DNA from: a virus
Virus record (IMG/VR): IMGVR_UViG_3300020159_002453
Location: 1 to 64,000 of that record
Direction: 5' to 3' (one strand)
DNA: 64,000 bases
Shown here: piece by piece, positions 36,868 to 63,356 of the stretch
How the letters are laid out: each line of letters begins with the position of its first letter
Position numbering within the stretch: position 1 is the stretch's first letter
Translations under genes and position numbers: made by a program
Notes under the pieces: model-generated
What the model was told of the DNA's origin: nothing
What the model saw: the letters and a program-made list of their open reading frames with translations, nothing else
Database searches by the model: none

Positions 36868-37521
36868 TTACAATATAAAGTATGGGGATTTGGACTCTAT
36901 TTTTACTGGTAAATCTACTAGCTTGCCATCAGATAAAGTATATACAGTATTTTCCTCTAATAATTTACTACCTTCAAACTCAGTAGAAGAAAAGTCCCCG
37001 GTATCGGTGTTAGCATACAAAGTACACGAGTTACGAGCCAAGTATATTGTGTTGTATACTTCGTCATAAGCCCAAATTGCGAAAGTACCTTCAATTTTAC
37101 TTAAACCTGCAGTTAAACCAAACTTATGTATTAATCGAGGTATAATACAGCTATCAGTAGCCCCGGTAAAATCTTCTTCAAGAAAGTGTTCTTTAGCAAG
37201 TTTTTCAAAATTACTCACAATACCGTTATGAGCTACAATCCAATTTTTATACTGAAACGGGTGATTGTGGGCAGGATTAAATTGTTTTGTTTCTACAGTC
37301 GGTCCCCGAGAATGATATAGAGTATACTGTATAGGGGTTGAATACTCAGGAAACTCCGGCTCATGGTGATTAAATGTACCAAGTGTTTTACTTACCTCTA
37401 TGTAGTTTTGACCCCAACCCCCTACGGTCATTAATCCAGTACTATAACTACCTCGAACCAAATTACTTTGATATAATTTAAACGCTCTCTTAGAATTAGT
37501 AGATCCCGCTATGCCGCACAT
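36868..37521 (-). CDS. Class II (Ntn) glutamine amidotransferase, stand-alone
   Basis: N-terminal MCGIAG, HSR.PT, HPF, AHNGIV, TDS, LARN; directly after queC. Confidence 0.9.
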   Translation of the reverse strand: MCGIAGSTNSKRAFKLYQSNLVRGSYSTGLMTVGGWGQNYIEVSKTLGTFNHHEPEFPEYSTPIQYTLYHSRGPTVETKQFNPAHNHPFQYKNWIVAHNGIVSNFEKLAKEHFLEEDFTGATDSCIIPRLIHKFGLTAGLSKIEGTFAIWAYDEVYNTIYLARNSCTLYANTDTGDFSSTEFEGSKLLEENTVYTLSDGKLVDLPVKIESKSPYFIL

Positions 37522-37524
37522 ATA

Positions 37525-38244
37525 TTAAAGGTATGTAAGTTCTTTGCAGTTATACTTTGACCACGGTATATCTTTGGAGTATCCAATAGGATCAATAGTC
37601 TTATTGTCGATAAAGGCTTTAATACGAGCTGAACACGATACACACTCTCCGCATGCTGGATCGGTACCTTCATAACAGGTGTGAGTTTGTCTAAAGTCTA
37701 CTTGTAGATCAATGCCTTTCTTGACGACAAGGTCTTTAGAATAAGACATAAACGGTGCATTAACCTTAATCGTATTCTTACGATTTAAGTTGTACACATC
37801 GTTAACCTTATTCAGAAAAAGAGACGTACAATCCCAATAACCGGAGAAGTCATCAGTTTGTACAGCACCGTAGTGTAGATCGCTTGCGCCAATGCTTTCA
37901 GCCCATCCAGCTGCGGTCGTAAGTAATAATAGATTTCTAAAGGGTACATAGCTTAAAGGTTGTGCGTTGCCGATATCATCCCGGGCTTTTGGAATAGCAA
38001 GGTTGGTGTTAGTTAGTGCAGACATTGTAGAGATGTCTCTAAAGAAATCCATATTAACAATCTTATGTTCTTTCACTTTGCATACTTTAGCTTGGTACTT
38101 AGCGCATTCAATCTCCCGTACAATGCGTTGACCATAATTAAAGGTAATAGCGTAAATCTCATCGTAATTGAGTTCTTTTGCTACATAATGAAGTAATATA
38201 GAGCTATCCATACCGCCTGATAGGATTACGAGTGCTTTTGACAT
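37525..38244 (-). CDS. queC: 7-cyano-7-deazaguanine synthase
   Basis: SGGMDS, FNYGQR, VPFRN, SGYWDC, CYEG...CGECVSC. Confidence 0.95.
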   Translation of the reverse strand: MSKALVILSGGMDSSILLHYVAKELNYDEIYAITFNYGQRIVREIECAKYQAKVCKVKEHKIVNMDFFRDISTMSALTNTNLAIPKARDDIGNAQPLSYVPFRNLLLLTTAAGWAESIGASDLHYGAVQTDDFSGYWDCTSLFLNKVNDVYNLNRKNTIKVNAPFMSYSKDLVVKKGIDLQVDFRQTHTCYEGTDPACGECVSCSARIKAFIDNKTIDPIGYSKDIPWSKYNCKELTYL

Positions 38245-41838: not shown

Positions 41839-42519
41839 TTAAGTCAAGTTTTTTCTTAAAAATTCTTGTTGTACGTGATCGGATATGAGTGAGTCGCTTT
41901 CCCCGTAAAACTCTCCTTTATCATTAATATACATACTCAGTAAAGCTAGACGCTCTTGACGACTACCATACAATGGTATAAAAGCCGGGCAATCATCAGT
42001 ATCAAAGAAACGAGAGCCAGTCTTTTCCCATGCTTTATAAATACCTTCAAATAAATGCCCGATTTCTGAACGATATAGCGGGTCAATATCCCTATTGGTC
42101 TTTGCTGTTAAAAGTACGTCGTTTTCAGCGCAAAACGGAATATAAAATATAACCGAGTAGAATTTAATAGAATTACGAACTAAGCTTACTGTTTTATCAA
42201 TAAAAGCTTCATCTACGTTCGAAGTACCTTTGTCAAACAGCCACAACGAATACACCAAGTTATCAATTGGTGTGCGATCGTAAATGATTTTTTTCTTACC
42301 AACACTTTCCATTGCCTCATCTACAAGAAAATTAAGGATAGCCTCTTGAGACTCCTTAGTGCCTTCTTTGTTAATCGGAAGGTTTTTTTCTTTAATTAAA
42401 TCTCTGTAAGACTTATTAGGAGATGAAAACATTGGCCACTTGTCTTTCATATCCTGAATAAGAGTAGACTTACCAACACACTGAGTACCGATAATACCGA
42501 TTTTATTAAGCTTTTCCAT
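41839..42519 (-). CDS. P-loop nucleotide/nucleoside kinase-like protein
   Basis: GTQCVGKST, YDRTPID; downstream of queD-queE. Confidence 0.75.
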   Translation of the reverse strand: MEKLNKIGIIGTQCVGKSTLIQDMKDKWPMFSSPNKSYRDLIKEKNLPINKEGTKESQEAILNFLVDEAMESVGKKKIIYDRTPIDNLVYSLWLFDKGTSNVDEAFIDKTVSLVRNSIKFYSVIFYIPFCAENDVLLTAKTNRDIDPLYRSEIGHLFEGIYKAWEKTGSRFFDTDDCPAFIPLYGSRQERLALLSMYINDKGEFYGESDSLISDHVQQEFLRKNLT

Positions 42520-42754: not shown

Positions 42755-43564
42755 TTAAACCTTAAGTGCTCGATCCCAAACTTGTAAATGCATTCTATTA
42801 GAGAATTTAAGGTTATACTTCTTACAGATATCAGCTACAGCAGGACCAATCTTAATAAGTTCATCTCTAGAGCCGCACATTGGCATAATCCAGATTAGCT
42901 CTTCTGGAAGATTAATCTCTGGGTTGTTTACAAACTTTTCATACATTTCATCTAGATCTGATTCCTGTTTAGCAACAAACTTAAAGCATGCTTTGTGCTT
43001 GATAAGGTAACGAATAACTTCTGGTTTAAAACGCTTGTCTTCCGGGTCACCGTTAACAGAAAGCTTAGGAGAAGTGGTATAGGTTACTTCGCAGCCAGTT
43101 GTCAGCCAACCTGGGTCAGGTAAAATAGTACCATTAGTTTCAAAGTCTATATTTAAAGTTGGTCCGAGCGGTTTATCGACAGAAGTGTCAAGTGCCTTGC
43201 TATAATCAACAAAGCCCCAGCGGTCTCTAATAAAGTGCACAAACTCCAAGAGGTTTTTTTGCTGAATAAAGGGCTCTCCGCCGGTAAGCTTGAGAAGGGC
43301 ACCCTCCTTAAGACGACTATGATAATCGTTCTTTTCAAAGTATTGGGCAATCTCTTCGAATGTCATTTTGTTCTTCTTAGACCAAGAAACGTAGCTATCA
43401 CAGCCAAACGGTGCGTCTGGGCTCTTGAATCCAATACAAGTAAGATTGCACATTGACAATCTCATAAACACCGATGGATAACCAATATATTTACCTTCGC
43501 CCTCTAGGGTATAAAATACAAAGTCGTCACTTAAAAAAAGGGTCTTATTTGAATCAATAGTCAT
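42755..43564 (-). CDS. queE: 7-carboxy-7-deazaguanine synthase (radical SAM)
   Basis: FYTLEGEG..IG.PSVFMRL..CNLTC...CDS, TGGEP, ETNG, SPKL, RMH. Confidence 0.92.
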   Translation of the reverse strand: MTIDSNKTLFLSDDFVFYTLEGEGKYIGYPSVFMRLSMCNLTCIGFKSPDAPFGCDSYVSWSKKNKMTFEEIAQYFEKNDYHSRLKEGALLKLTGGEPFIQQKNLLEFVHFIRDRWGFVDYSKALDTSVDKPLGPTLNIDFETNGTILPDPGWLTTGCEVTYTTSPKLSVNGDPEDKRFKPEVIRYLIKHKACFKFVAKQESDLDEMYEKFVNNPEINLPEELIWIMPMCGSRDELIKIGPAVADICKKYNLKFSNRMHLQVWDRALKV

Positions 43565-43618: not shown

Positions 43619-44065
43619 TTAAATCCTTTCATAAATTGCACTATTTCCTTCGTGTTCCCACACTTCTACCCTCTGTACCCAGCAACGGCCTTGAGTGATA
43701 TCGTTGATGTACTCATCTGCTGTACTAAAACAATAGTTTGCAAAGCGCTCAATACCTACTCCTTCAGGCATTACCACAAGTTCAATCATCTTACGCTTTT
43801 CAAGTTCCTTAAACATATCAAGATCCGGATCAACACCTGATACTACAGTCTTATGGTCGAACGTCTCTTCAAGGATAGTCTTAAGACCTTTAAGTGCACC
43901 AAAGTCGACTACCCAACTGTTGTTATCAAGTACATTACAAGTAAACCAAAACTTAGCTTGTAAACGGTAGCCGTGAATAAACCGGCAATGACTTTCAGCA
44001 AATGGCTGTCTAAATGCACAAGAACCAAGCGGAATAACTTTAGTGGAAACGTATCTATTGCTCAT
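43619..44065 (-). CDS. queD: 6-carboxytetrahydropterin synthase (phage-type)
   Basis: HC..IHGY, VVDFG, FDHK, VEVWE; adjacent to queE. Confidence 0.85.
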   Translation of the reverse strand: MSNRYVSTKVIPLGSCAFRQPFAESHCRFIHGYRLQAKFWFTCNVLDNNSWVVDFGALKGLKTILEETFDHKTVVSGVDPDLDMFKELEKRKMIELVVMPEGVGIERFANYCFSTADEYINDITQGRCWVQRVEVWEHEGNSAIYERI

Positions 44066-49565: not shown

Positions 49566-50604
49566 CTCAGAAGTCGGTATTTTTTCCGATCCACACTACG
49601 GTGTACATCGCAATAGTCCGATGTGGCACAAAATTGCTCTGGACCACGCTAAGTGGGCAGCTGAGCAATTTAATCTTAAAGGTATCAAAGACATTATTAT
49701 ACCTGGAGATATTTTTCACGACCGTAATGATATCGCGGTTAATACACTCCATATTGTTACCGATATTTTTGATATTCTTAAAAACTTCAACATTATTATT
49801 ACTGTCGGTAATCACGATGCTTTTTACCGGGACAATTCTACCGTCAATTCTGTTTCTATTTTGCGTGGCTGGTCTAATATTACTGTTGTTGATACTCTCA
49901 CTATACTGGAAACCCACGGTAAAAAAATAGCTTTATGCCCTTGGGGGCAAGATATTAACGAGGTACCCTCGTGTGATCTTATTGTGGGTCATTTTGAAAT
50001 TAATAGTTTTAAAATGAACTCGTATAAGGTATGTACGAATGGTCTTAAATCTACTGACCTTACCAGTCGTGCTAAGTTAACTATTTCCGGTCACTTCCAT
50101 CATAAAGAAGAACGCAAATACAAAGATGGTACTATTATGTATGTAGGTTGCCCATACCAGCAAGATTGGGGCGACTATGAAACAACTAAAGGTCTTTATA
50201 TCTTAGATTTAGACACCTTAAAATATGAATTCATTGAAAATAACATATCCCCGCAATACAACAAGATTAGATATTCTGAAATTGCGAACGGTACACTTAA
50301 TGCTGAAAAGTTAAAGAAAATTATACCAGGTAATATTATTAAGCTTTACATTGATAAAAAGCTTGAGCCGGATGCAGTAGATGTACTTGTAAGAAAGCTT
50401 GTGTCAGTTAAACCTGTAGAGTTTACTATTGAGTATGATTTTGTAGATACTGTTAACGTAGATAATGAAGCCGCTAATAAAAAAGACTTCACAGTAAGCG
50501 TAGAAACTTCAATTAATGAATTTATTGATTTATTGGATATTAAGCATAAAGATAAGGTGAAAGAGTATGTTATTGAGTTATATAATAAATCTAATAAAAC
50601 ATGA
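49552..50604 (+). CDS. Recombination nuclease, T4 gp47 / Mre11-like
   Basis: SDPHYG, GDIFHDR, GNHD, GHFE, SGHFH, YVGCPYQ. Confidence 0.95.
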   Translation: MKIFNSEVGIFSDPHYGVHRNSPMWHKIALDHAKWAAEQFNLKGIKDIIIPGDIFHDRNDIAVNTLHIVTDIFDILKNFNIIITVGNHDAFYRDNSTVNSVSILRGWSNITVVDTLTILETHGKKIALCPWGQDINEVPSCDLIVGHFEINSFKMNSYKVCTNGLKSTDLTSRAKLTISGHFHHKEERKYKDGTIMYVGCPYQQDWGDYETTKGLYILDLDTLKYEFIENNISPQYNKIRYSEIANGTLNAEKLKKIIPGNIIKLYIDKKLEPDAVDVLVRKLVSVKPVEFTIEYDFVDTVNVDNEAANKKDFTVSVETSINEFIDLLDIKHKDKVKEYVIELYNKSNKT

Positions 50605-51434
50605 AAATAGGAGTAGCAATTATTGCCTGCGATAGATTGGAATACACCAAAAAGTGTGTTGAAAGTGTTATTGCAAATAAAGGACCAGTCACTGACATAA
50701 TATTAGTCAATGACGGGGTTAAAATACCTGAGGGGGTATTGCCTACTGAAGTAATGGTAATGGAGAATCGCCCCCCTTACCAGTCAGTCGGGGTTGCTAA
50801 GAACAACGCTCTAAGAACTCTTTCAAATTGGAATTGTGACCATATGTTTTTAATTGAAAACGATATTATGGTTAAATCCTCTAATGTGTGGCAGAAGTAT
50901 ATTGATACTGCTAATGCTACCGGTATTACTCATTTAAATTTCGGTTATCACGGGCCTGCTAATCGCACCCCCGACTATACTAAACCTAACCCGCGAACAA
51001 TTGTAGAATACCCTGTAACTGTAAAAACCGCTTTTCAGACAATTGAATCAGTGAAGGTAGCACTGAACATGCATAGTGTTGGTGCTTTTTCTTATTATAG
51101 TCCTTTGTTTGTTAAGACTGTTGGCTTACACGATGAATACTTTAAGAATGCCTGGGAACATGTTGAATTATGTCAAAGAGCTGTTAAGCTTGGAATGCTA
51201 CCGGCATTTTGGTGGTTTCCAGATGTAGAAGGTAGCGATAGCCTGTTACAAGAAGTAGAAGGCTCGATTAAAAACAGTTCTATTACACATACTGAAAAAT
51301 GGATTAACAATATGAGAAAAGGGGCCGCTCATTATAAGAAGCTACATGGTTGGGAACCTATTCACACTCCAGATACCCCACCTAAAGAAGTATTCGATAG
51401 ACTAAAGACGATTTACAGCAAATACAAAAAGTGA
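50601..51434 (+). CDS. GT2 glycosyltransferase
   Basis: GVAII.CDR, VNDG, VGVAKN, FLIEND, VG..DE.F.NAWEH. Confidence 0.85.
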   Translation: MKIGVAIIACDRLEYTKKCVESVIANKGPVTDIILVNDGVKIPEGVLPTEVMVMENRPPYQSVGVAKNNALRTLSNWNCDHMFLIENDIMVKSSNVWQKYIDTANATGITHLNFGYHGPANRTPDYTKPNPRTIVEYPVTVKTAFQTIESVKVALNMHSVGAFSYYSPLFVKTVGLHDEYFKNAWEHVELCQRAVKLGMLPAFWWFPDVEGSDSLLQEVEGSIKNSSITHTEKWINNMRKGAAHYKKLHGWEPIHTPDTPPKEVFDRLKTIYSKYKK

Positions 51435-52246
51435 AAAACCTATATTTAAAAGATAGTTCTTTCGGTCACTGCATTTATAGTAACAACCCTACCCCGGCTG
51501 TAACATTTAGTAAGCATATAAATTGGGTTAGAGATGGTAAAGGTAAACTTGAAGATACTGTATATACTGATATGCACTTACAGGAGTGTGAAGGAGGTAT
51601 CGGTTGGTTGCTTGAACCTCAAGGCATTTACCCACAAGCATATCAATATGTAATGCAGAATGCACATAAGTTTAAAGAGATCTGGACTCATGATGCATCA
51701 ATGCTGTATTTGCCTAATGCTAAGTTAGTGCCTATTGGCGGGTGTTGGATAGAGAAACAAGATTACGGGATACATAAAAAGAGTAAAATGTTTTCTATAA
51801 TTGCTTCATGGAAGCGAGCTTTGCCTGGCCATAAGTTAAGACACACTATTATTAGTCTAGCGGGTAAACATATTGATGCTTACGGGCCTGAGTATATACA
51901 ATTTAAAAAGCACTCAATGAACAAGATTGAAGGTCTAAAAGACTATAGATATCATTTTGTTATTGAGAACTGCAAGAGAGACTTTTATTTTAGCGAAAAG
52001 CTAATTGATAGTCTTATGACTGGTACAATGCCTATATACTGGGGCTGTCCATCTATTGGAAAATACTTTAATACTGACGGTTTTATTATATTTGATACAC
52101 TTGAGGAGTTGAAAGAAAAGCTTAAGCTTTGTACCCCGGAGTATTATGACAGCAAAAAAGAAGCTATTATAGACAACTTCCAGAGAGCACAGAATTATTT
52201 GCTAGCTGAGGATTGGATGGTAGAGAACGGAGTTATTAAACTCTAG
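51431..52246 (+). CDS. GT10-like (alpha-1,3/4-fucosyltransferase-type) glycosyltransferase
   Basis: YRYHFVIEN...YFSEKLID....TMPIYWG motif. Confidence 0.8.
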   Translation: MKNLYLKDSSFGHCIYSNNPTPAVTFSKHINWVRDGKGKLEDTVYTDMHLQECEGGIGWLLEPQGIYPQAYQYVMQNAHKFKEIWTHDASMLYLPNAKLVPIGGCWIEKQDYGIHKKSKMFSIIASWKRALPGHKLRHTIISLAGKHIDAYGPEYIQFKKHSMNKIEGLKDYRYHFVIENCKRDFYFSEKLIDSLMTGTMPIYWGCPSIGKYFNTDGFIIFDTLEELKEKLKLCTPEYYDSKKEAIIDNFQRAQNYLLAEDWMVENGVIKL

Positions 52247-53045
52247 TCCAGCTTTCTGGTATTAAGTCAGCCGTGCTCCAATCTTTATACATTGGACCAA
52301 ACCAATTTTTCGGCGCAATTACTACCTTTTCAGGATTAGTGTTAAACCAAGCTGACCACCAGCTAAAGGTACTGTTTGCTATAATGTTGTTTTTACAGCT
52401 ACTCATTGCATGCATATCAGCAAACGGGTTTTTACTGTTTGAGTACTTAACTTTTTTGTTAACACCAAATGCTTCTTTGCACCATGCAATATCATCTGAA
52501 AACACTAAATAATTTTTACTTGGTACTAACTTAGTAGCATTAAAATAGTATTCCGGAGTCATTAGGGGGTGCCAAGCTTGCTTTTTTACATAATCTCCAC
52601 GTCTTACATGTATAGAGGTAGTCTCTTCTGGATCAATACCAGCTTCAATAAAAATCTCATCCGACAAAGCTACAATAGTTTCTTTAAACTGTAAATGCTC
52701 AAGTATGTACTCTCTATTATGGTTAAAGTACTTTTCACTTTGAAAATAACCAGTTAAATCAGTGTTATCCGATATGTTAAACACATCTTTAGTAAAATGA
52801 AATGCGGGGTCCTGGTATTGATTAGTAACACCATCTGACTCTTCTTTAGTAATGTAAGGAGCCTTTACGTTAAATCCCTGGGACAAGTTGAAATTCATAG
52901 CCTGACAGTAGTTATCATAATGTGTCGGGTTATTAGGGATTTTAACAGTATATCCGTTGTCTTTACCTACGGACAATAGAGTGGAGTACTGAAATAGAGC
53001 ATTACCCACATTACCATTACGACCTAGCAGTTTATATGTAATCAT
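52236..53045 (-). CDS. GT11 (alpha-1,2-fucosyltransferase-type) glycosyltransferase
   Basis: GNVGNALFQY, GYFQSEKYF, SIHVRRGDY, FSDD..WC, IIANSTFSWW, IAPK.WF. Confidence 0.9.
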   Translation of the reverse strand: MITYKLLGRNGNVGNALFQYSTLLSVGKDNGYTVKIPNNPTHYDNYCQAMNFNLSQGFNVKAPYITKEESDGVTNQYQDPAFHFTKDVFNISDNTDLTGYFQSEKYFNHNREYILEHLQFKETIVALSDEIFIEAGIDPEETTSIHVRRGDYVKKQAWHPLMTPEYYFNATKLVPSKNYLVFSDDIAWCKEAFGVNKKVKYSNSKNPFADMHAMSSCKNNIIANSTFSWWSAWFNTNPEKVVIAPKNWFGPMYKDWSTADLIPESWTRV

Positions 53046-53791
53046 TTCCAGTTCCAGCCTTCGACCTCTTTAAGCAGCTGCTCGTTAGATAGTTCTCCTA
53101 TACGATGTAACTCTAAGCGATTGGATTCTAAATGAGGATTGTGATTGTAAGAAGCCTCAAGTCTTACATGATTTAAATGGTAAAGGGGTCCACTAATACG
53201 CGCGAATTCACATCCAAGCTTTTTAAAACGGAAGAATATTTCGTTATCTTCATACCCTAAACCTTTAAAGTTTTCATTAGCCCCTCCACATTTCCAGAAA
53301 GTATTTGTGTCAAAGAATACTGCACCCCCCACTGATCCAGTATGAAAGCAGGTACACTCATTAAGATCTACCATTCCTGTGTTTTTTGCTTTTTTAATAA
53401 GACTATGATACTTTTTAGGTACATCATAAAAATGTCCATCAAACGGGTATACAACCGTAGCTTTACCACTCAAAATTACCTCTGTAGCTTTTTTAATTTG
53501 ATTTGGAGTTAATAAGATATCAGCATCATAGTGGGCTACAACCGGGGTATCAGCAGCTTTTGCAGCTAAGTTTACCCCGCGTTGTCTGTTAAAAAACTCA
53601 TTTGTCTCTTTAAAAATATACTTGCAATTATAACGATCTTTAAGTTTAGGGATAGTATCCTGTTCACATATTACAATATTGGTGTTTAAGTTGCTTTGGA
53701 GGAAATCCATAGTTATGTCCAAGTTGTTTAAACGATCCTGACTATCAACCTTTAAAGCTATCAAAATGGTTAGGTCTTTTAAATCTATCAT
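53042..53791 (-). CDS. GT7-like / GT2 galactosyltransferase-type enzyme
   Basis: R..NL, ICEQ, FNR..GVN, HYDAD, GGANE.F.GLGYED, LYHL.H; TAAGTA at 53801-53806. Confidence 0.8.
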   Translation of the reverse strand: MIDLKDLTILIALKVDSQDRLNNLDITMDFLQSNLNTNIVICEQDTIPKLKDRYNCKYIFKETNEFFNRQRGVNLAAKAADTPVVAHYDADILLTPNQIKKATEVILSGKATVVYPFDGHFYDVPKKYHSLIKKAKNTGMVDLNECTCFHTGSVGGAVFFDTNTFWKCGGANENFKGLGYEDNEIFFRFKKLGCEFARISGPLYHLNHVRLEASYNHNPHLESNRLELHRIGELSNEQLLKEVEGWNWK

Positions 53792-53864: not shown

Positions 53865-55688
53865 ATGCGTTACATCCATTTTAAGCGGGTTAGTATTGTT
53901 AACTTTTTATCGGTAGGCAAGAAAGCTGTTGAGATTAATTTTAAACCAGGTCTTAACATTATCACAGGTAAAAACTATGATAAGGCAGACCGTGCAAACG
54001 GCGTGGGTAAATCTACTATCGCAGATGCAGTGCATTTTGCTCTTTACGGTAGTACCATTCGAGATGTTAAGAAAGAAAATATTGTTAACGACCAAGCACC
54101 AGACAGTCTGTGTGAAGTAGAGCTAGAGTTTAATTTTGTACTAAACGACCGCACAAGCGAGTGTAAGATTATTCGTACTCTTAATCCTACTAAGTGCTTA
54201 TTTTTTATTAACGGAGAAGATGTAACCCGCTCTGGGGTACCTCAAACAACCGAATTTATTACAGAGACTATTAAGACTTCATCTGAAGTGTTTCAGAATA
54301 GTGTGGTAATGACAATTAATAATACTATACCGTTTATGGCTCAAAAGAAGGTCGAAAAACGCAAATTTATTGAAGGCATTCTTGGGCTAGAAGTCTTTGG
54401 GGATATGTTGCTGTTAGCTCGTTCTCAATTTAACGAATCTAAACGCAATCTTGATATTGAATCCACCAAGCACGATGAGACTGCTCGTTCTTTAATCGAA
54501 GCTACCAAGCAAAGAGATAATTATGAGGTTTCTAAAAAAACTCGTCTTGACTCTCTTTTACAACGTCAAAGCAACAACACACAAGAATTAGCGATTTTAA
54601 ATCAAAAGATCGGTAAACTTGAGTCTGTTGATACAGAAGCTCAAAACAAAATTGAAGAGGATTTAAAGGTACTTAAAGAAGCAGAAAGAGCTCACTCTAA
54701 GAAGACCGATGCTATTGTTAAACTTATTACTGAAGCCCAAGCCCATGTTAAGTTTAACACTGACCGTATTAAAAAGCTCAAAAAGGTTGATAGTAAGTGT
54801 CTGCATTGCGGTAAAGATCTTGCAGAGGCCGCTAACACTCAGTACGAAAAAGATAAAGATGAATGTGGAAAAGAGGTGTTTAAGTATACAGAAGTGCTTA
54901 ATAGAGAAAATCCTCGTTTAGCTGAAGCGCGTAAAAATGTAGAAAAACTAGAAAAGTCTATCCCTGATTTGGAACGCAAATTACACGAGTTTGCACTCCG
55001 CAAAAAGGAAGTAGAAAGTCTTAACTCTCGGGTTCTTCAAATAGAAAGCTGGCAGCAATCTCTTTTGTCTGATATCGAAGAGATTAACAAAGACTCTAAC
55101 AATTTTCAAGAAATTATTGACAAAGTGTTAGAACGTCAAAAGTCAATTAAAGACGGTATTGAAGCATTACAGGTACGTCTCGATATTATCGAGAGTGCAA
55201 AGTTTATTACCTCTGAAGAAGGGGTTAAATCGTTTATTGTTAAGAAGATTATACAAGTACTCAATACAAGACTTGAACATTATTTACGTAGACTGGAAGG
55301 TAATAGTATAGTTAAATTTAATGAGTTTTTTGAAGAAACTATTACCAATGAACGTGGTAAAGAGTGTAGCTATTTTAACTTCTCCGGGGCGGAGCGTAAA
55401 TCTATAGATCTTGCAATGTTATTTACCTTTCAAGATATTCGCCGCGCACAAGCAGATGTTTCTATTAACTTGAGCATGTTTGATGAGTTGTTCGATTCAT
55501 CTTTAGACGATAAAGGTATTGAGTTAGTACTTGATATTCTTAAAGAAAGGGTAGATATGTATAATGAAGCAATTTATATTATTTCTCATCGTAATGAGAG
55601 TAAGAAGTATTGCAGCGGTGGAGAAATTATCTACCTCGAAAAGAAAAACGGTATAACAACCAGAACAACTAATTATGACATTTCCTAA
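53865..55688 (+). CDS. Recombination ATPase, T4 gp46 / Rad50-like
   Basis: NFLS.G, NGVGKST, CLHC hook, FSGAE signature, FDE.FDSSLD, ISH. Confidence 0.96.
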   Translation: MRYIHFKRVSIVNFLSVGKKAVEINFKPGLNIITGKNYDKADRANGVGKSTIADAVHFALYGSTIRDVKKENIVNDQAPDSLCEVELEFNFVLNDRTSECKIIRTLNPTKCLFFINGEDVTRSGVPQTTEFITETIKTSSEVFQNSVVMTINNTIPFMAQKKVEKRKFIEGILGLEVFGDMLLLARSQFNESKRNLDIESTKHDETARSLIEATKQRDNYEVSKKTRLDSLLQRQSNNTQELAILNQKIGKLESVDTEAQNKIEEDLKVLKEAERAHSKKTDAIVKLITEAQAHVKFNTDRIKKLKKVDSKCLHCGKDLAEAANTQYEKDKDECGKEVFKYTEVLNRENPRLAEARKNVEKLEKSIPDLERKLHEFALRKKEVESLNSRVLQIESWQQSLLSDIEEINKDSNNFQEIIDKVLERQKSIKDGIEALQVRLDIIESAKFITSEEGVKSFIVKKIIQVLNTRLEHYLRRLEGNSIVKFNEFFEETITNERGKECSYFNFSGAERKSIDLAMLFTFQDIRRAQADVSINLSMFDELFDSSLDDKGIELVLDILKERVDMYNEAIYIISHRNESKKYCSGGEIIYLEKKNGITTRTTNYDIS

Positions 55689-56862
55689 CAACAACGGCGT
55701 TATTGGCGCCCCACAAGTTCCATTCGGTGCACCTATGGTAGGTAACCCTATGGTGCAATCTGCCCCTGTGCAGGTACCTATCTCTATGAATCCAATGATA
55801 AGTGGGTTAAAAAGAGCAGTTAGCTTTGCAGCTGATCATCAAGGGTGTGGTTTTTGGAGAATGCACTGGCCGGAATCCGTTATTAATGGCCAACAATTGG
55901 GGGTTATTAGTAATAATAATTTTATGCTTTTGCAGGAAAACTTTTATGAAGGTATTGAAAGTATAAGAATCCAGCGTCAAGTTACCCCTACCCAATTAAG
56001 TTTCGTTAAATTTTTAAAGGCAGTCTCAAAAAAGAAAAATAATTTTAAGATTTATTACGAGATTGATGATGTTATTTTTCCTGAAGATATTCCTGTTTAC
56101 AATAAAGCTAGAGAAGCGTTTACTGACCCCTCTATTATTGCTTCTGCAATAGAAATTATGAAATTGTGTGATGGTATTACCACCCCTACCGACTACATGT
56201 CAAAGTATTACGAGGAAAAGACCGGGGTTAAAGGTATAACTCTACCCAATTATATGCCAAAGTTTTGGATGGATCGCTTTTATAATAAAGCTAAAATTGT
56301 AGAAAATTTTGATTTTAATAAACGCCGACCACGAGTTGGTTACATTGGTAGTCCTACCCATTTTAACGTAGGGGAGGTAGCTGGGGCAAAAGACGATTTT
56401 GCTGATATTTCCAACATAATTATTAAGACAGTTAAGAACTTTAAGTGGGTAATTATGGGTGGTTGCCCACGGGAACTTGCACCTTATGTAAGAAGCGGGG
56501 ATATTGAATATTACCCTTGGGTTCGTATTTGGGATTATCCTACTGCTTTTAATAATCTCAATATTAACGTCGCGATTGCACCATTACAGAATAATAGATT
56601 CAATCTAGCTAAAGCGCCCATCAAATATCTTGAAGCAGGCGCGCTTGGTATACCTTGTGTATGTCAAGATCTTGCTCCTTATAATACCAACCCAGTTGCT
56701 CCACTTAGATTTAATACTGCTGATGAAATGATAGAGATTATTAAAAAAGTTACCGGGGATCGTCGATATTACCTCAATGAATCTGATAAAGCACGTAAAG
56801 TTGCTACTGGATACTGGCTTGAAGATCATATTAAGGAATTTACTAATTTGTATTTTGGTTAA
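55675..56862 (+). CDS. GT-B (GT4-like) glycosyltransferase
   Basis: GCGFWR..WP, YEIDD, LPNY, RVGY.GS.TH, IAPLQNN.FN.AK..IKYLE.GALG.P. Confidence 0.8.
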   Translation: MTFPNNNGVIGAPQVPFGAPMVGNPMVQSAPVQVPISMNPMISGLKRAVSFAADHQGCGFWRMHWPESVINGQQLGVISNNNFMLLQENFYEGIESIRIQRQVTPTQLSFVKFLKAVSKKKNNFKIYYEIDDVIFPEDIPVYNKAREAFTDPSIIASAIEIMKLCDGITTPTDYMSKYYEEKTGVKGITLPNYMPKFWMDRFYNKAKIVENFDFNKRRPRVGYIGSPTHFNVGEVAGAKDDFADISNIIIKTVKNFKWVIMGGCPRELAPYVRSGDIEYYPWVRIWDYPTAFNNLNINVAIAPLQNNRFNLAKAPIKYLEAGALGIPCVCQDLAPYNTNPVAPLRFNTADEMIEIIKKVTGDRRYYLNESDKARKVATGYWLEDHIKEFTNLYFG

Positions 56863-56906: not shown

Positions 56907-59471
56907 GTGTATCGTAACATTTATTATAGTTCTAGGGATAGTACTTGCCATCTTTTTAAGTGGGACGAGCATGGCAACCGGGTAATTGAAAGAAGCCCTT
57001 ACTTACCGTACTTTTATATTGAGACTAATGCTGAGACGGCTGATGCACTATCTATCTTTAATACTAAGTTAAAGAAGAAAGTATTTCGTAATAACTACGA
57101 ACGCAATAAGTCTGCTCAAGATGGTGCTATCAAACGGCTCTATCACAATATTCAGGTCGAGCAGCAATTCTTAATTGAGCAATACAAAGACGTTTACGAT
57201 AAGCCTGAATTTTCTAATAATCCGCTTAAAGTATGCTTTCTTGATATCGAAGTGTACTCCCCGGATGAGTTCCCTCAAGCTAAGGATGCTAAGCACCCAA
57301 TTAACTTAATTACCGTTTACGATACGCTTTCGGAAACATTTTACTCGTTTGGTGCTAAGCCCTATACCCCCACTCGTAAGAACGTAGTGTATACTGAGTG
57401 TACAAGTGAGCACGATCTATTAGAAAAGTTCTTAGAGTTTTGGGAGAAAGACTACTACCCTGATATTCTTTCAGGTTGGAATACAGATTTTTTCGATTTT
57501 CCTTACCTCATTAACCGCATTAATAATCTTTTAGGAGAAGATGCTGCAAAACGGCTTTCGCCGGTACAGAGTCTGTGGTGCCGTAAAGGTATTTTTGTTA
57601 AAGGTCAAGAGCTCGATCGTTGGTATATTCACGGTATTTCTGCAATGGATTACATGGAAGTGTATAAGGGCTTTGCACGTGGTTTGCTTGAATCTTACGC
57701 ACTTAACTTTGTCGCACAACATGAGCTTGGAGAAGGTAAGCTAGCTATTAACGCCACTAACTTAGCCGATCTTTCTGAGTCTGACTGGAACAATTTTGTT
57801 GAGTATAATATTCAGGACGTCGATCTACTTGTGAGAATGGAGAAGAAACTCCAGTTCTTTAAGATTATTCGAATGCTTGCTTATAAAGGGTTGACTAGCT
57901 TTGAAGCTGCTCTTGGTAAAGTATCTATTGTTACTGGGTGTGTTGCATTAGAAGCCTATAAGCATGGTATGGTTATACCTACCTTTGTGGAAGGACCTAC
58001 CCGGGAAGCTATTGAGGGTGGATACGTTAGAGACCCTGAAAGAGGTCTTCAAACCTCTATTGTAAGTTATGACGCTAATTCACTATACCCTAATACTATT
58101 ATTACCCTGAATATATCCCCGGAGACAAAGGTCGGTAAGATAGTTGCTAAGGATGATGAGAGTGTTACGTTACGCTTAGCTAATAATAAGGATTTCAAGC
58201 TTACTAACGAGAAGTTTATTCAGTTTGTTCAATCCGAAAAGCTTACGATATCCAAAGCTAACGTACTTTACACACAAAAGAAGAAAGGTGTGGTGCCCTC
58301 GCTTATCGATGGTCTTTATAGTGAGCGGGTTGTTAATAAGAATCAATACGTGGATTTAAAAAAGAAACTCAGTAAGTTAGATATAGCCACTGATGAATAT
58401 CGAATCTGCAAAGCGAACATGGAAAGAGCTGACACTATTCAGCATGTTATCAAGATTTTGCTTAACTCTATATACGGTGTTTTTGCTAATAAGTTTAGTC
58501 CTATTTGCGATAGCGATCATGCTGGTAGTATTACTCTCACGGGTCAAGCTGTTGTTAAGCAGGCTAGTGAAATACTGGATCAATACGCACGAGAAGTCCT
58601 TAGCTACCAGGGTAAGTCCCTCACAATCTACAACGATACTGATAGTACTCATATTACTATACAGCCTCTCCTGGACAAGAAGAATTTAAACATCTTTACA
58701 GACGGTAAAGTTAATAAAGAGGGTCTTAAGTTTATTGATGATGAACTCGGGGTCTATCTCAACGCTAAAATTAAAGAATGGGCTAAGGACAAGTTAAACT
58801 CAATTGACCCGCGGTATTATTTTAAACGGGAATCAATTTGTGATGTTGCAGTTTACCTTGAAAAGAAACGTTACATTATCCACGTTATTAATGATGAAGG
58901 GGCAGATGTAAGCAAGTTTAAATATGTCGGGGTTGAGATTGCCCGTTCTACCACACCTAAGAAAGCTAAAGAGCTTATTAAAAAGGTAATTGAAAGTAGT
59001 TTATTAGTACAAGATCAGATTAAAGCTAATACTATTTATCGAGACGTGTATGATACGTTTAAAAAGCTTTCGATTGATGATATTGCCATTAGAGGTGGGT
59101 TGAGCGATATTGAAAAACATCAAGTACGTGCAGATGGGTTTAAAATTGCTAAAGGCACCCCGAATCATGTCAAAGGCGCTATTTGGTATAATCAATTGCT
59201 TAAGCACCGTAACTTAGAAACAAAATACGAACGCATTACTTCAGGCGGTAAAGTTAAGAAGATTTATATTGCGCCGAACAAGTATAACATCGACACACTT
59301 TGCTTCCCAGTAAGTTTTCCACCAGAATTTAAGGACTTTGAAGTTGATTACGAAGAGATGTTCGATACAATTATTAAACCACCAGTAATTGCAGTTTATA
59401 CCGCTCTCAACTGGCGTTTACCTGAAGTTAACAACCAAGCACAAACCGATCTATTTGACCTATTTACATAA
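56907..59471 (+). CDS. Family B DNA polymerase, T4 gp43-like
   Basis: ExoI DIE, GWN..FFD.PY, YNIQD, DANSLYP, KILLNSIYG, YNDTDS, KKRY. Confidence 0.97.
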   Translation: MYRNIYYSSRDSTCHLFKWDEHGNRVIERSPYLPYFYIETNAETADALSIFNTKLKKKVFRNNYERNKSAQDGAIKRLYHNIQVEQQFLIEQYKDVYDKPEFSNNPLKVCFLDIEVYSPDEFPQAKDAKHPINLITVYDTLSETFYSFGAKPYTPTRKNVVYTECTSEHDLLEKFLEFWEKDYYPDILSGWNTDFFDFPYLINRINNLLGEDAAKRLSPVQSLWCRKGIFVKGQELDRWYIHGISAMDYMEVYKGFARGLLESYALNFVAQHELGEGKLAINATNLADLSESDWNNFVEYNIQDVDLLVRMEKKLQFFKIIRMLAYKGLTSFEAALGKVSIVTGCVALEAYKHGMVIPTFVEGPTREAIEGGYVRDPERGLQTSIVSYDANSLYPNTIITLNISPETKVGKIVAKDDESVTLRLANNKDFKLTNEKFIQFVQSEKLTISKANVLYTQKKKGVVPSLIDGLYSERVVNKNQYVDLKKKLSKLDIATDEYRICKANMERADTIQHVIKILLNSIYGVFANKFSPICDSDHAGSITLTGQAVVKQASEILDQYAREVLSYQGKSLTIYNDTDSTHITIQPLLDKKNLNIFTDGKVNKEGLKFIDDELGVYLNAKIKEWAKDKLNSIDPRYYFKRESICDVAVYLEKKRYIIHVINDEGADVSKFKYVGVEIARSTTPKKAKELIKKVIESSLLVQDQIKANTIYRDVYDTFKKLSIDDIAIRGGLSDIEKHQVRADGFKIAKGTPNHVKGAIWYNQLLKHRNLETKYERITSGGKVKKIYIAPNKYNIDTLCFPVSFPPEFKDFEVDYEEMFDTIIKPPVIAVYTALNWRLPEVNNQAQTDLFDLFT

Positions 59472-60221
59472 ATAGCATTTCCAGCCTCTCCAGTTATTTT
59501 TTTTATATTTACAACTTTTTTTAGCTATTTCTCTCATCGTCCACACCGGCAAGTTATGTTTCTTACAAAATGTTTCAGATTCTCCGATAATATCGTATTT
59601 TTCTCCAGCGGGATCAATAAAAAGCCAATGCTTAGCTCTTGAATTATATTTCCCTTTAACTGAAAGCACCCCCTCTGCAAATAAGCGCTTTCTAGTGAGA
59701 CTTATTTGGCTCCCATTGTTATCGTGCGGAACCATTAATCCTTTTTTTAACTTACTATTTTTTGCGTAATAAAGTACTTTCATACGCTTTGAATGCTGCT
59801 TACGTCGCTCGAAGGTCCAAGCTTTTTTTTGCGCCTCCTGTCTTTTTTGCATAACTTCTAGAGAAGAAGTACGACCACCCTTTTCGATTATATTTGTTAA
59901 TGGACCATTATTTTTAATAACTTGACCTATTTCAGATATTAACTTTGCTTCAAGTGCGATAGATCTATCGTGAGTTAGTCCTTTCTCTACAAACACTATA
60001 TAATCTTTTAAGTTAAATGTTTTTAAGTTATTAAGTACTGTTTGTTTTAACTTATTATTACCCCCGCTACCTTTCCAAATATGTCTATATGCACGACTTC
60101 CGGTACCTTTACCCACATAAAAGGGTTCGTATTTAAACGAAGCTGAATCATAGTTAAAGCTTCCAGGCTTTAAAGGATTAGTATAAACATACACATAAAA
60201 GGTTGATTTAACATAGTTCAT
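59460..60221 (-). CDS. GIY-YIG-like free-standing endonuclease
   Basis: FYVYVY..P...EPFYVGKG.G.R...H, E..LI..IG....GPLTN...GG. Confidence 0.8.
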   Translation of the reverse strand: MNYVKSTFYVYVYTNPLKPGSFNYDSASFKYEPFYVGKGTGSRAYRHIWKGSGGNNKLKQTVLNNLKTFNLKDYIVFVEKGLTHDRSIALEAKLISEIGQVIKNNGPLTNIIEKGGRTSSLEVMQKRQEAQKKAWTFERRKQHSKRMKVLYYAKNSKLKKGLMVPHDNNGSQISLTRKRLFAEGVLSVKGKYNSRAKHWLFIDPAGEKYDIIGESETFCKKHNLPVWTMREIAKKSCKYKKNNWRGWKCYLCK

Positions 60222-60252
60222 ATATATAATTACTAAACTAGTAACTATATTT

Positions 60253-61068
60253 ATGATTAAAATATCTCACGAATCACCTTTAAGCATGCTCGAAATGTCT
60301 CGTACGTATAATGATTATGATTATGCCCTCACACATTTGTTCGAGATTTACCCGCAGTATTATAAGTTTTTTCAAGATAGTCTTGAACAAGGTAGATGCG
60401 TATTATTAGATTGCTCAACATTTGAGCTTGGTACTGCTTTTGATTCGGAACGATACGCATATTGGATTAACAAACTTTTACCCACCGAATACATTATTCC
60501 AGATGTGCTAGAGGATTGTAATGGTACGATTAAATCTGCTATGGACTGGAATTTTAGACTAGATTGGAATAACGTACCTCACACACAGAGTAGAATGATT
60601 GGGGTAGTGCAGGGTAAAAATTACGGGGAGCTGGTTAAATGTTATACCCATATGGATCAAGTAATGAATGTAGATAAGCTCGCTATTTCATTTGACTACT
60701 CTTATTACCGAGAAGTGTTTCCTCATCCTAACAAGTGGGTATCGTTTATGATGGGCCGAGTGATGACTCTTACTCGCTTAATGAACGATGGTGTTATTAA
60801 TAAAGGTAAGCCTCACCATCTTCTTGGTTGCGCACACCCTAGAGAGTTCAGCTTTTATCAAGGACCAGAGTTTAGCTGGATTGACTCTTTGGATACCTCT
60901 TCACCTATAGTGCATGGTATCAAGAAGATCGCATACTCTGATAAGATCGGTATTTGGAATAAAGAGAGTACTAAACTGGTTGATCTACTTGATTCGGTAC
61001 CAGATGCTGCTCAAGAGAAATGTATTGCAGACAACCTTGCTGCTTTCCGTAGCTACGTGAATGGATGA
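60253..61068 (+). CDS. TGT-fold guanine transglycosylase-like protein (DpdA-like, probably DpdA3 type)
   Basis: LLDCS.FE, IPDV, GVVQG, HHLLG, SLDTSS match TGT barrel spacing of the two catalytic Asp; operon with queF. Confidence 0.65.
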   Translation: MIKISHESPLSMLEMSRTYNDYDYALTHLFEIYPQYYKFFQDSLEQGRCVLLDCSTFELGTAFDSERYAYWINKLLPTEYIIPDVLEDCNGTIKSAMDWNFRLDWNNVPHTQSRMIGVVQGKNYGELVKCYTHMDQVMNVDKLAISFDYSYYREVFPHPNKWVSFMMGRVMTLTRLMNDGVINKGKPHHLLGCAHPREFSFYQGPEFSWIDSLDTSSPIVHGIKKIAYSDKIGIWNKESTKLVDLLDSVPDAAQEKCIADNLAAFRSYVNG

Positions 61069-61300
61069 ATTAACTGATATTGAGGCTATTACACATAATG
61101 TGTCAATAGCTTACCCACACTTGCTTCGAGACGGGGTAACTGTAAAGGATTATTACTTTATTGATTGCCAGAAAAATGAAGTACTTCCAGTAACAGAATT
61201 TAAAGCTGTAAAGGATTACATAAAAAGTGCTGAGATCAAAGACTTTGCTATGGTAATTTCTTTTAGTAATAATATAATAGGTTACCGCTTAAATGTATGA
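61061..61300 (+). CDS. Hypothetical protein in deazaguanine operon
   Basis: Overlaps both neighbours in a translationally coupled manner. Confidence 0.6.
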   Translation: MDELTDIEAITHNVSIAYPHLLRDGVTVKDYYFIDCQKNEVLPVTEFKAVKDYIKSAEIKDFAMVISFSNNIIGYRLNV

Positions 61301-61887
61301 AAAGAAGAAGCACATGGGGAGTATTATTTTCGCAATCTGGTTCAGAGATTTTAGAAGTCTCTAAACATCTTAACTGTGTGCCTGATGTTATTGTAACTAA
61401 TAAGCCGGTTGAGGATATACATAAGATTAACCCAGAATTACTTGCAATAGCATTTGAAAAGTTTATCTTTTTACCTAAAAAACCCACTGTGGAAGAGTAT
61501 GTTACTGCTTTAAAGCATACTGGCTTTGTTACACTACACGGATTTTTAAGAGTGTTACCCCCGGAAATTTGTTTCCGGTACAATATTTATAATGGTCATC
61601 CTGGTTTAATAACTAAGTATCCGGAGTTAAAAGGTAAAGACCCTCAAGCTAAGGTGTGGGATTCTAATGTTAATTATAGATACCATGGGCATGTTATACA
61701 TAAAGTAGTTGCTGAAGTGGATGCCGGGGAAGTAACAGCATCAGCATACTTTATGAGTGAAGACATTAAAAAAGAGTTTGGTAGTTTAGATAACTACATT
61801 AAGCACTTACACCGGGTTTCAGTTAGAAATTGGGTAGCCTTTTTGAAGAAAAAAGATATACTCAACGCATCAATTTATGGACAATAA
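61297..61887 (+). CDS. PurN-like formyltransferase (DpdN-like)
   Basis: VLFSQSGS, LHGFLRVL, NGHPGL, G.VIH.V..EVDAG. Confidence 0.82.
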   Translation: MKRRSTWGVLFSQSGSEILEVSKHLNCVPDVIVTNKPVEDIHKINPELLAIAFEKFIFLPKKPTVEEYVTALKHTGFVTLHGFLRVLPPEICFRYNIYNGHPGLITKYPELKGKDPQAKVWDSNVNYRYHGHVIHKVVAEVDAGEVTASAYFMSEDIKKEFGSLDNYIKHLHRVSVRNWVAFLKKKDILNASIYGQ

Positions 61888-62449
61888 CTATAAAGTAGTA
61901 ATTTGTGGAGCACATTCACAAGGAAAAACTACTCTGGTAAATAAGCTAAAAGAAAATGTCGAGCTTACGCACGACTTTAAGTTTTCTTTTAGGACCAATC
62001 TTACTAGAGACTTAAGCAAACTATTGCCTATTAACGAAGCAGGAGATTCTGTTTCGCAGTATTTAATTATGGCTCGCCATCTAGAATTTGCTTTGACTCC
62101 AGGGCGTTGGATTATGGATCGGGGTGCCTTGGATGGAGCTGCTTATAGCCGCTACTTCTATGATGAGAATAAAGTGAGTAAGAACATTATGGATGCAATT
62201 GATGAGGTATATGAACAGTGTGTACCTTATTACAATAAAGTGTTTTACATCGCACCTGAGCTACCTCTAGTAGAAGATGGAGAACGTAGTGTAAATAAAG
62301 AATTCTTTGATGGGGTTGTAAAGCAATTTGATTTTTACACGAGACATTTTAGTGTTAGTAATAAAGTAGTATTTTTAACTGGTTCTGTATCAGAACGTGC
62401 AAATACTGTGATTAACGCAATTAGAACCGATTTCAACAATGAGCTATAA
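61877..62449 (+). CDS. P-loop nucleotide kinase-like protein
   Basis: GAHSQGKTT, MDRGALD, EDGERS; between formyltransferase and queF. Confidence 0.75.
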   Translation: MDNNYKVVICGAHSQGKTTLVNKLKENVELTHDFKFSFRTNLTRDLSKLLPINEAGDSVSQYLIMARHLEFALTPGRWIMDRGALDGAAYSRYFYDENKVSKNIMDAIDEVYEQCVPYYNKVFYIAPELPLVEDGERSVNKEFFDGVVKQFDFYTRHFSVSNKVVFLTGSVSERANTVINAIRTDFNNEL

Positions 62450-63356
62450 TACAAATAATATCGATAAAGTACTCGGACAGAGAGTTGATTCTCCGTCTAC
62501 GTATTCCCCTGACATCCTTGTACGTGAAGAACGTCAACGTAATCGCACGCATCTTGACTTGCAAAATGAATCCCTTCCTTTTGTCGGTTATGATATCTGG
62601 AACGGTTATGAATGTAGTGCAGTAACAGATGCCGGTCTACCAGTGTCTTTTGTTGCTAAAGTAGTTTATGCTGCTACTAACCCATACATTGTAGAGTCTA
62701 AGTCAATGAAGCTTTACTGGAACGGGTTTAACATGCAACCATCCGGTAAGACCCCTAAAGAAGTTCTTAAGAACGTTAAAGCTACTGCCGAAAAAGATCT
62801 TTCTGCATTGCTTGAGACGCCGGTTAAGGTAGAGTTTTACACTCAAAAATTAGAGGGGGATTACTTAAAAGAAAATGAGTGGTTTAATAGTTACGGTGGC
62901 TGGGACGTTCTTGAAGAAATTCCTGAAGCAAAGAAAATGAAATTTACTGTATTTAACGAGACCGCTGATTTGTTAAAGTTAGACGGAAAAGTTGATATAG
63001 GTTGGGTTGAGGAGCGCTATATGAGTACCCTTCTTCGTTCTAACTGCAAAATTACTAAGCAGCCAGACTCTGGGGATATTTTTATCTATTATAAAGGTTC
63101 TAAAGCAGTAACAGAGCGCTCTCTATTAGAGTGGATTGTCTCGTTCCGTAATGAATGTCACTTCCACGAGGAGATAGTTGAGTGTGCGTTCAAACGATTA
63201 TATGATTTAATAACCCCTGATGAGTTACTAGTAACAGCTTTTTATGCACGTCGTGGTGGTTGGGATATCGTACCCACACGTGCTACCCACAAGCATCTTT
63301 TAGATAAAAATCTTATTAACGCTAAAAAACCATACTTTAAGTTCCCTAGACAGTAA
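62439..63356 (+). CDS. queF: NADPH-dependent preQ0 reductase, bimodular type
   Basis: G.DIWNGYE.S, VESKSMKLYWNGF, LLRSNCKITKQPD, FHEE.VE, YARRGG.DI.P.R. Confidence 0.93.
   Translation: MSYNTNNIDKVLGQRVDSPSTYSPDILVREERQRNRTHLDLQNESLPFVGYDIWNGYECSAVTDAGLPVSFVAKVVYAATNPYIVESKSMKLYWNGFNMQPSGKTPKEVLKNVKATAEKDLSALLETPVKVEFYTQKLEGDYLKENEWFNSYGGWDVLEEIPEAKKMKFTVFNETADLLKLDGKVDIGWVEERYMSTLLRSNCKITKQPDSGDIFIYYKGSKAVTERSLLEWIVSFRNECHFHEEIVECAFKRLYDLITPDELLVTAFYARRGGWDIVPTRATHKHLLDKNLINAKKPYFKFPRQ

Follow-up and report, generated by a model that had tools for sequence, protein, structure and literature searches.

The DNA considered here is the first 64 kb (hereafter, the window) of a 79,878-bp IMG/VR virus record, IMGVR_UViG_3300020159_002453, the completeness of which is estimated at ~37%. 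The phage is T4-like, as it encodes UvsY, a gp46/47-like pair, a late sigma factor, and a family-B DNA polymerase (PolB). Near the polymerase gene, at positions 60253-63356 on the + strand, lies an operon of five open reading frames (ORFs), each overlapping the next by 4-11 nt, which codes in order for a DpdA3-type guanine transglycosylase homolog, a protein of 79 aa, the formyltransferase DpdN, an AAA_28 kinase (kinase A), and a two-domain QueF. This operon is the DpdA3/DpdN/QueF module for DNA modification with deazaguanines that was already described in 2023, and the phage is thus another carrier of a known system. A first-pass annotation, made from the letters of the DNA alone, had picked out the same five coupled frames and had read them as a protein with the tRNA-guanine transglycosylase (TGT) fold, a small unknown protein, a PurN-like formyltransferase, a P-loop kinase, and a true QueF. 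The frames are all present, and the identities were confirmed by Pfam, PHROG, and NCBIfam matches, by fold comparison, and by motifs. The genes of the operon are as follows.

60253..61068, + strand: DpdA3-type guanine transglycosylase homolog, 271 aa, a minimal TGT-fold TIM barrel (PHROG 19058, fold match)
61061..61300, + strand: acidic protein of 79 aa, of no known family, a lineage-specific accessory (conserved ORF in relatives)
61297..61887, + strand: DpdN, a formyltransferase resembling PurN, with the aminomethyl group of preQ1 as its predicted target (PF00551)
61877..62449, + strand: kinase A, an AAA_28 P-loop nucleoside or nucleotide kinase resembling the ribosylnicotinamide kinase (RNK) domain of NadR, deoxynucleoside kinases (dNK), and thymidylate kinases (TMPK) (PF13521, PHROG 2107)
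62439..63356, + strand: QueF, two-domain, NADPH-dependent reductase of preQ0 to preQ1 (PF14819, PF14489, TIGR03138)

Consecutive frames share 8 nt (DpdA3 and the 79-aa gene), the tetranucleotide ATGA (the 79-aa gene and DpdN), 11 nt (DpdN and kinase A), and again 11 nt (kinase A and QueF).

The transglycosylase has no match in Pfam or NCBIfam and is recognized by PHROG 19058 (E = 1e-51). Its assignment to the DpdA3 subfamily comes from its similarity to two phage proteins in tblastn searches, namely, the “DNA guanine transglycosylase” of Flavobacterium phage immuto_2-6A (hereafter, immuto; 51.5% identity over 100% of the length, E = 1e-82) and gp056 of Campylobacter phage CP220 (42% identity, E = 6e-47). 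The names DpdA3 and DpdN are those given by Cui et al. 2023 (PMC10516641). A profile of the family retrieves chance matches only from the PDB sequences, and the homology to TGT is visible only at the level of the predicted fold: an AlphaFold (AF2) model built on 36 relatives, with a mean confidence (pLDDT) of 91.9, matches TGT structures with a Foldseek probability of 1.0, and its residues 1-271 superpose on residues 39-360 of the Zymomonas mobilis TGT with a VIA-align Z score of 17.7 and a root-mean-square deviation of 3.1 Å over 227 residues. Three aspartates, D53, D84, and D214, are invariant in 40 DpdA3 relatives that share 31-41% identity. In the bacterial DpdA of Salmonella Montevideo, the active-site residues Asp95, Asp130, and Asp256 serve as the general acid/base, in base recognition, and as the nucleophile, respectively (PMC10164549), and in sequence the DpdA3 aspartates resemble this triad in order, in spacing (31 and 130 versus 35 and 126 residues), and in motifs. 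An hhalign comparison of the DpdA3 profile with the single DpdA1 sequence of Enterobacteria phage 9g returned a 32-column match (ViLDNS against FLDSG) with a probability of 3%, too weak for the mapping of residues. TGT and bacterial DpdA also contain a structural zinc site, CxCx2Cx22H (PMC10164549), and no CxCxxC was found in the DpdA3 of the window, of immuto, of CP220, or of Cellulophaga phage phiST, nor in 40 further members of the family. The missing zinc motif was considered as a sign that DpdA3 does not bind nucleic acid and was dropped because phage 9g DpdA1 is also without it; net charge and isoelectric point (median pI 5.5) were dropped too as indicators of DNA binding, as they are uninformative without a calibrated control. 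The DpdA3 family is large: it comprises 2,720 clusters at an identity of 90%, and its representatives at 50% number 3,208. Viral contigs were scanned twice with separate patterns, and 561 and 532 stretches, respectively, were confirmed to encode a relative. The family includes natural fusions of DpdA3 to DpdN of 447 aa (P0253, P0355), and one member (P0344) has a C-terminal extension of 160 aa that looks GNAT-like by eye.

DpdN matches PF00551 at 28.1 bits against a cut-off of 26.1, and its N99, H101, and D141 align with N106, H108, and D144 of Escherichia coli PurN, the glycinamide ribonucleotide transformylase, so that the catalytic triad is intact. It is 49% identical to the DpdN of immuto and is encoded together with DpdA3, QueC, QueD, QueE, and QueF. 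The last of these contains both the QueF_N (PF14819, E = 8e-25) and the QueF (PF14489, E = 1e-17) domains and scores 213.9 bits with TIGR03138, which is below the equivalog cut-off of 293; it displays ESKSMKLY at residue 86, the catalytic Cys203 within RSNC (residue 200), and FHE. The set of DpdA3, DpdN, kinase, and QueF is kept in all 58 close relatives with enough downstream DNA. The 79-aa protein, for which there is no match in Pfam, PHROG, or NCBIfam, is found as an ORF of 76-79 aa in 50 of these 58, where its 24 distinct sequences share 39-80% identity and invariant motifs. It is missing from the remaining 8 and from the immuto-type lineage, which makes the modified base discussed below (examples of loci without it are L009, L011, and L069). 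Thus, it is a real but lineage-specific accessory rather than a core step of the pathway, and the first-pass view of it as one of the uncharacterized steps does not hold.

The genes for the synthesis of preQ0 are also in the window, 16-23 kb from the operon and on the opposite strand. As the first-pass annotation had noted, queC, queD, and queE are accompanied by a second kinase gene (kinase B) beside queE.

43619..44065, − strand: QueD, 6-carboxytetrahydropterin (CPH4) synthase (PF01242, E = 2e-16; PHROG 2389)
42755..43564, − strand: QueE, radical-SAM 7-carboxy-7-deazaguanine (CDG) synthase (PHROG 2076, E = 3e-40; QueE models of NCBIfam)
41839..42519, − strand: kinase B, a paralog of kinase A, adjoining QueE (PF13521, 32.5 bits)
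37525..38244, − strand: QueC, preQ0 synthase (PF06508, E = 9e-62; TIGR00364, 174.9 bits, above its cut-off)
36868..37521, − strand: class-II glutamine amidotransferase (GATase) directly downstream of queC (PF13522/PF13537; N-terminal MCGIAG)

FolE, not seen in the first pass, is found neither in the window nor in the rest of the 79,878-bp record; it is encoded in related records.

By analogy with immuto, the DNA of this phage very probably carries fdPreQ1, that is, 7-(formylamino)methyl-7-deazaguanine, in place of G, because the gene order is the same as in that phage, the DNA of which has all its G replaced. Measurement of immuto DNA by liquid chromatography-mass spectrometry (LC-MS) gave 345,000 fdPreQ1 per 10^6 nt and no dG (Cui et al. 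2023, PMC10516641), and the formyl-preQ1 predicted in the first pass is therefore well founded. In the pathway as we would reconstruct it, QueD, QueE, and QueC make preQ0, with FolE presumably supplied by the host or by the unseen part of the genome; QueF would then reduce preQ0 to preQ1, DpdA3 would swap guanine for the deazaguanine through a TGT-type double displacement, and DpdN would formylate the aminomethyl group with a formyl-folate as the donor. The QueD, QueE, QueC, and QueF steps and the formylation by DpdN follow, on this analogy, from the established functions of the families together with the chemistry of immuto.

Kinase A matches PF13521 (AAA_28) at 49.7 bits and PHROG 2107, and contains a Walker A motif, GAHSQGKT, at residue 11 and DRG at residue 81. 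Its profile retrieves from the PDB the RNK of NadR (5e-6), dNK (1e-5), and TMPK (2e-4), and NadR, TMPK, and dNK are also its top Foldseek matches, nucleoside kinases and nucleoside monophosphate kinases not being separated by fold. Both the profile and the fold identify it as a small-molecule kinase and not a DNA motor. A tblastn search of 50,697 phage records finds this kinase subfamily in exactly 18, of which 14 are Campylobacter phages (Firehammervirus) and 4 are Flavobacterium phages; all 18 also hold DpdA3, always adjacent to the kinase. The same linkage is seen in viral contigs: of the 80 that were retrieved with the kinase profile, 68 have enough upstream DNA to be evaluated, and in every one of these DpdA3 lies 33-818 bp upstream of the kinase. 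Kinase B is the second AAA_28 match in the record and has orthologs, with 66-72% identity, in three of five related records; another locus, L088, likewise encodes two AAA_28 kinases. Moreover, DpdA3 genes are accompanied by kinases of other families. In phiST, the gene directly upstream of DpdA3, CGPG_00066 (10382-10861 of L085, − strand), was called a protein of unknown function by Cui et al. 2023 (PMC10516641); it encodes a kinase-like P-loop protein (AAA_18 at 29.8 bits, AAA_33, Walker A GEICSGKD) from a different family than kinase A. The DpdA3 of CP220 is flanked on one side by a fusion of HD and AAA_33 domains (gp055) and on the other by an AAA_28 kinase.

Enzymes acting on (d)NTPs form a second recurrent element of these neighborhoods. 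In a diverse sample of 80 DpdA3 loci, with 37-43% identity to the query, 41 have 4 kb on both sides of DpdA3; a MazG/PRA-PH-like gene occurs in 23 of these 41 and a phosphoribosyltransferase (PRTase) in 21, and 36 encode a kinase, a MazG-like protein, or both. A PRA-PH/MazG-like hydrolase and a PRTase are encoded just upstream of DpdA3 in immuto, a MazG-like pyrophosphatase lies two genes from CGPG_00066 in phiST, an HD phosphohydrolase domain sits beside DpdA3 in CP220 (in gp055), and in locus L145 a gene for a PF18909 dATP/dGTP diphosphohydrolase (5606-6004) overlaps the start of DpdA3. The DpdA1 cluster of phage 9g, which is associated with partial modification, contains no annotated kinase or NTP hydrolase.

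These gene contexts lead us to favor, at about even odds (a probability of roughly 0.5), an fdPreQ1 module in which guanine is exchanged at the nucleotide level and before replication. DpdA3 would act on free deoxyguanosine or one of its nucleotides, such as dGMP derived from the breakdown of host DNA or from a (d)GTP hydrolase of the HD or MazG type; the two dedicated AAA_28 kinases would rephosphorylate the product toward the dNTP; and the adjacent phage polymerase would incorporate the modified dNTP, making the replacement pre-replicative. Both the level of DpdA3 action and the kinase substrates are deduced from gene context. A more general form of the proposal, to which we give slightly less than an even chance, is that DpdA3 may be the first TGT-fold enzyme to swap the base of a free deoxyguanosine nucleoside or nucleotide, and that complete replacement in DpdA3 phages, whether by fdPreQ1, by 7-amido-7-deazaguanine (dADG), or by 7-deazaguanine (dDG), may be pre-replicative throughout. 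In such a general pathway, a hydrolase would supply the substrate and clear dGTP, DpdA3 would swap the base, DpdN would decorate it, and kinases of the AAA_28 type would rebuild the dNTP. A nucleotide-level route would explain why the kinase is linked exclusively to DpdA3, why unrelated kinases were recruited independently, why (d)NTP hydrolases are embedded in the clusters, and why complete replacement is seen only with DpdA3. As dADG, dDG, and fdPreQ1 share no hydroxyl handle, only the sugar-phosphate part would be common to them as a kinase substrate. Replacement is 100% in all three DpdA3 lineages tested, against ≤30% for the other DpdA subfamilies, and expression of DpdA3 in E. coli has yielded no DNA modification (PMC10516641). 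A modified-dGTP route had been proposed earlier for Campylobacter phages, as cited in a passage of Hutinet et al. 2019 (PMC6884629).

Nearly as likely is that the module makes the same fdPreQ1 but that DpdA3 exchanges guanine in replicated DNA, as published. DpdN would then formylate either dPreQ1 in DNA or the free preQ1 base, and the kinases and (d)NTP hydrolases would manage the general pool, for instance, by recycling host dNMPs or by limiting the drain of GTP/dGTP. Several observations weigh in this direction and against exchange on free nucleotides. DpdA3 is homologous to transglycosylases that act on tRNA and DNA; to our knowledge, every characterized TGT-fold enzyme acts on a polynucleotide, and none is known to act on mononucleotides. 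Not all DpdA3 loci have the kinase: it is present in 44 of 63 evaluable loci of the diverse sample and missing from the neighborhood of DpdA3 in the other 19 (30%). Among the loci without it, eight with DpdN and QueF have an 85-aa DUF3310 protein in the position of the kinase, ten QueC-only loci have neither the kinase nor DUF3310, and an 82-kb kinase-less DpdA3 record has no AAA_28 match at all; a search for AAA_28 across five such kinase-less records gave sub-threshold P-loop matches only. Furthermore, a search of the 79.9-kb record for dGTP-clearing enzymes (HD, MazG, PRA-PH, or PF18909) found none; with two thirds of the genome outside this record, the negative result does not show absence from the phage. 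Finally, Cui et al. 2023 (PMC10516641) explicitly proposed post-replicative exchange on DNA. On the other side of the balance, a kinase serving the general pool should not be confined to phages with DpdA3, yet this subfamily is, in both the phage records and the viral contigs. That phiST and CP220 have independently recruited unrelated kinases beside DpdA3 likewise points to a role in the pathway, and the partially modifying 9g cluster does without any annotated kinase or NTP hydrolase. We also know of no precedent for complete replacement through base exchange on duplex DNA. The PRTase is neutral, being needed for the salvage of the released guanine under either model. The pre-replicative route advanced in the first pass thus stands as plausible, with comparative support from the kinase-DpdA3 linkage and from the (d)NTP hydrolases of related clusters.

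Two further alternatives concern the kinase and the GATase. The best profile and fold matches of kinase A include the RNK domains of NadR, its homologs are annotated as “nicotinamide riboside kinase” at source, and its gene lies directly 5' of queF in most loci. These features could mean that it is a ribosylnicotinamide kinase of the NadR C-terminal type, which would salvage NAD(P) for the NADPH of QueF and have nothing to do with deoxynucleotides. We regard this as very unlikely, since thymidylate and deoxynucleoside kinases match about equally well, no NMN adenylyltransferase partner is seen, three loci have the kinase and DpdA3 but neither QueF nor DpdN, and CP220-type phages have the kinase beside DpdA3 but no QueF, their pathway stopping at CDG/ADG (PMC10516641). 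As to the GATase, its gene lies 3 nt after queC, 17 DpdA3 loci have the same QueC-GATase pair, and the amidotransferases nearest to it in phages carry annotations like that of phage 9g. It is probably an ammonia donor for QueC; otherwise, it may have a function like that of Gat-QueC. Were it to act as the Gat of Gat-QueC, preQ0 would be converted to the archaeosine base, and the final base could be other than fdPreQ1 or a mixture, with deoxyarchaeosine (dG+) inserted additionally or instead. Such an outcome appears improbable: QueF and a DpdN with an intact triad are both present and conserved, immuto DNA holds fdPreQ1 only, and a glutaminase feeding ammonia to QueC is a simpler account of the pair.

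The operon itself is ordinary: with it, a very large family, spanning hundreds of viral contigs and carrying a system described in 2023, gains another uncultured phage. The interest lies in the exchange step and in the testable challenge to the post-replicative model. If exchange takes place on free nucleotides, this would be a new type of reaction for the TGT fold, would correct or overturn the published post-replicative model of phage DNA with 100% deazaguanine, and would provide an enzymatic route to 7-substituted 7-deaza-dGTPs. With the exclusivity of the kinase, the independent recruitment of kinases, and the (d)NTP hydrolases embedded in the clusters as a starting point, three proteins and a few substrates would suffice for a direct test.

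The loci without the kinase show some additional variety. DUF3310 proteins in the place of the kinase are exemplified by L090 (3698-3961) and L114 (7309-7563), and P0330 is a fusion of DpdA3 to DUF3310; no function for this domain was found in the literature. The ten QueC-only loci (L098, L115, L124, L129, L130, L139, L140, L154, L160, and L162) represent a DpdA3 lineage with QueC, QueD, and QueE and without QueF, DpdN, or the AAA_28 kinase. This lineage often has a PRTase, FolE, and a MazG-like gene, and its DpdA3 is followed by a highly acidic ORF of 65 aa; the base inserted in its phages is not predictable from the known examples.

The surroundings of the operon include a candidate promoter and several mobile genes.

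60203..60230, + strand: sigma-70-like promoter match, 23 nt 5' of the DpdA3 start codon (TTGATT-16-TATAAT, 10/12 matches)
59460-60221, − strand: GIY-YIG homing endonuclease gene between PolB and DpdA3
63358-64065, − strand: second GIY-YIG gene, after QueF
46452-46952, − strand: SegE-like GIY-YIG endonuclease gene
40659-41114, + strand: TnsA-like endonuclease gene

The promoter is the best match of the region, but such sites are not more numerous than expected by chance, and it is a positional hint only. The first-pass annotation placed the operon just after the DNA polymerase; it is indeed near PolB, but the two do not abut directly, as the first GIY-YIG gene has been inserted between them, whereas PolB and DpdA3 are directly adjacent in related contigs. 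More generally, mobile endonuclease genes are scattered through the replication/modification region. A megablast search with the operon against the 50,697 phage records gave no match, indicating that there is no close cultured relative among them. Six glycosyltransferase-like genes, at 50601-53791, 55675-56862, and 35541-36221, are found amid the replication/recombination genes; the families represented are GT2, GT10 and GT11 (fucosyltransferase-like), GT2/GT7C, GT1_4/PHROG 7162, and Glyco_tranf_2_5. A DUF366 (PF04017) protein is encoded at 34938-35519 on the − strand (E = 2e-21) and has no counterpart in any of the fetched loci. Between kinase B and the TnsA-like gene, an ORF of 233 aa (41111-41812, − strand) matches no family in Pfam, PHROGs, or NCBIfam; in the ESM Atlas, it scores 0.77 to unnamed viral clusters, which offers no lead.

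Among known systems, the closest parallel is with immuto, in which DpdA3, a small ORF, DpdN, an AAA_28 kinase (annotated as “thymidylate kinase”), and QueF follow one another in identical order with 33-51% identity, QueC, QueD, and QueE are co-encoded, and the cluster adjoins a DNA polymerase gene. The two differ in that the window comes from a T4-like phage with a family-B polymerase upstream, whereas immuto has a family-A polymerase downstream; in the small ORF, of 79 aa in the window and 50 aa in immuto, the two being without apparent similarity as judged by eye without alignment; in the second kinase paralog beside QueE, found in the window and not in immuto; and in the distant location of queC, queD, and queE on the other strand. 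FolE, along with the hydrolase and PRTase already mentioned, lies beside DpdA3 in immuto, and none of these is seen in the 79.9-kb record of the window. The Campylobacter Firehammervirus phages (gp055-gp057 of CP220) resemble the window in having a DpdA3 (42% identity) directly followed by an AAA_28 kinase (30% identity). They too show complete replacement of G, but the product is dADG, QueF and DpdN are missing, and the HD phosphohydrolase-AAA_33 kinase fusion precedes DpdA3. In phiST (CGPG_00064-00071), a distant DpdA3 is again next to a polymerase with a P-loop kinase-like protein directly upstream, in a cluster with FolE, QueD, QueE, and a MazG-like pyrophosphatase and with 100% dDG in the DNA. 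There, however, the kinase is of the AAA_18/AAA_33 type, and the cluster has DpdL instead of QueC, QueF, and DpdN, with 7-deazaguanine as the product.

The DpdA1 of Enterobacteria phage 9g and the bacterial DpdA/DpdB systems are more distant counterparts, which likewise combine a TGT-fold transglycosylase with preQ0 genes near replication genes (PMC10164549). In these, insertion is post-replicative and modification is partial, with ≤27% of G replaced. Bacterial DpdA additionally requires DpdB, a ParB-like ATPase with no relationship to the kinases of the window. In the hydroxymethylcytosine (hmC) system of phage T4 and the Z-genome system of phage S-2L (PurZ, MazZ, DatZ), by comparison, the modified dNMP is made in the nucleotide pool, a dedicated kinase acts on it, the canonical dNTP is eliminated by a hydrolase, and the base is replaced completely. 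The Z pathway has been summarized elsewhere (PMC12783734). If the pre-replicative reading holds, the DpdA3 module would work along the same lines as these systems. The distinction would lie in the origin of the base, which the T4 and Z-genome systems synthesize on the nucleotide and which, in the pathway proposed here, would be installed through base exchange by a TGT-fold enzyme, a solution without precedent.

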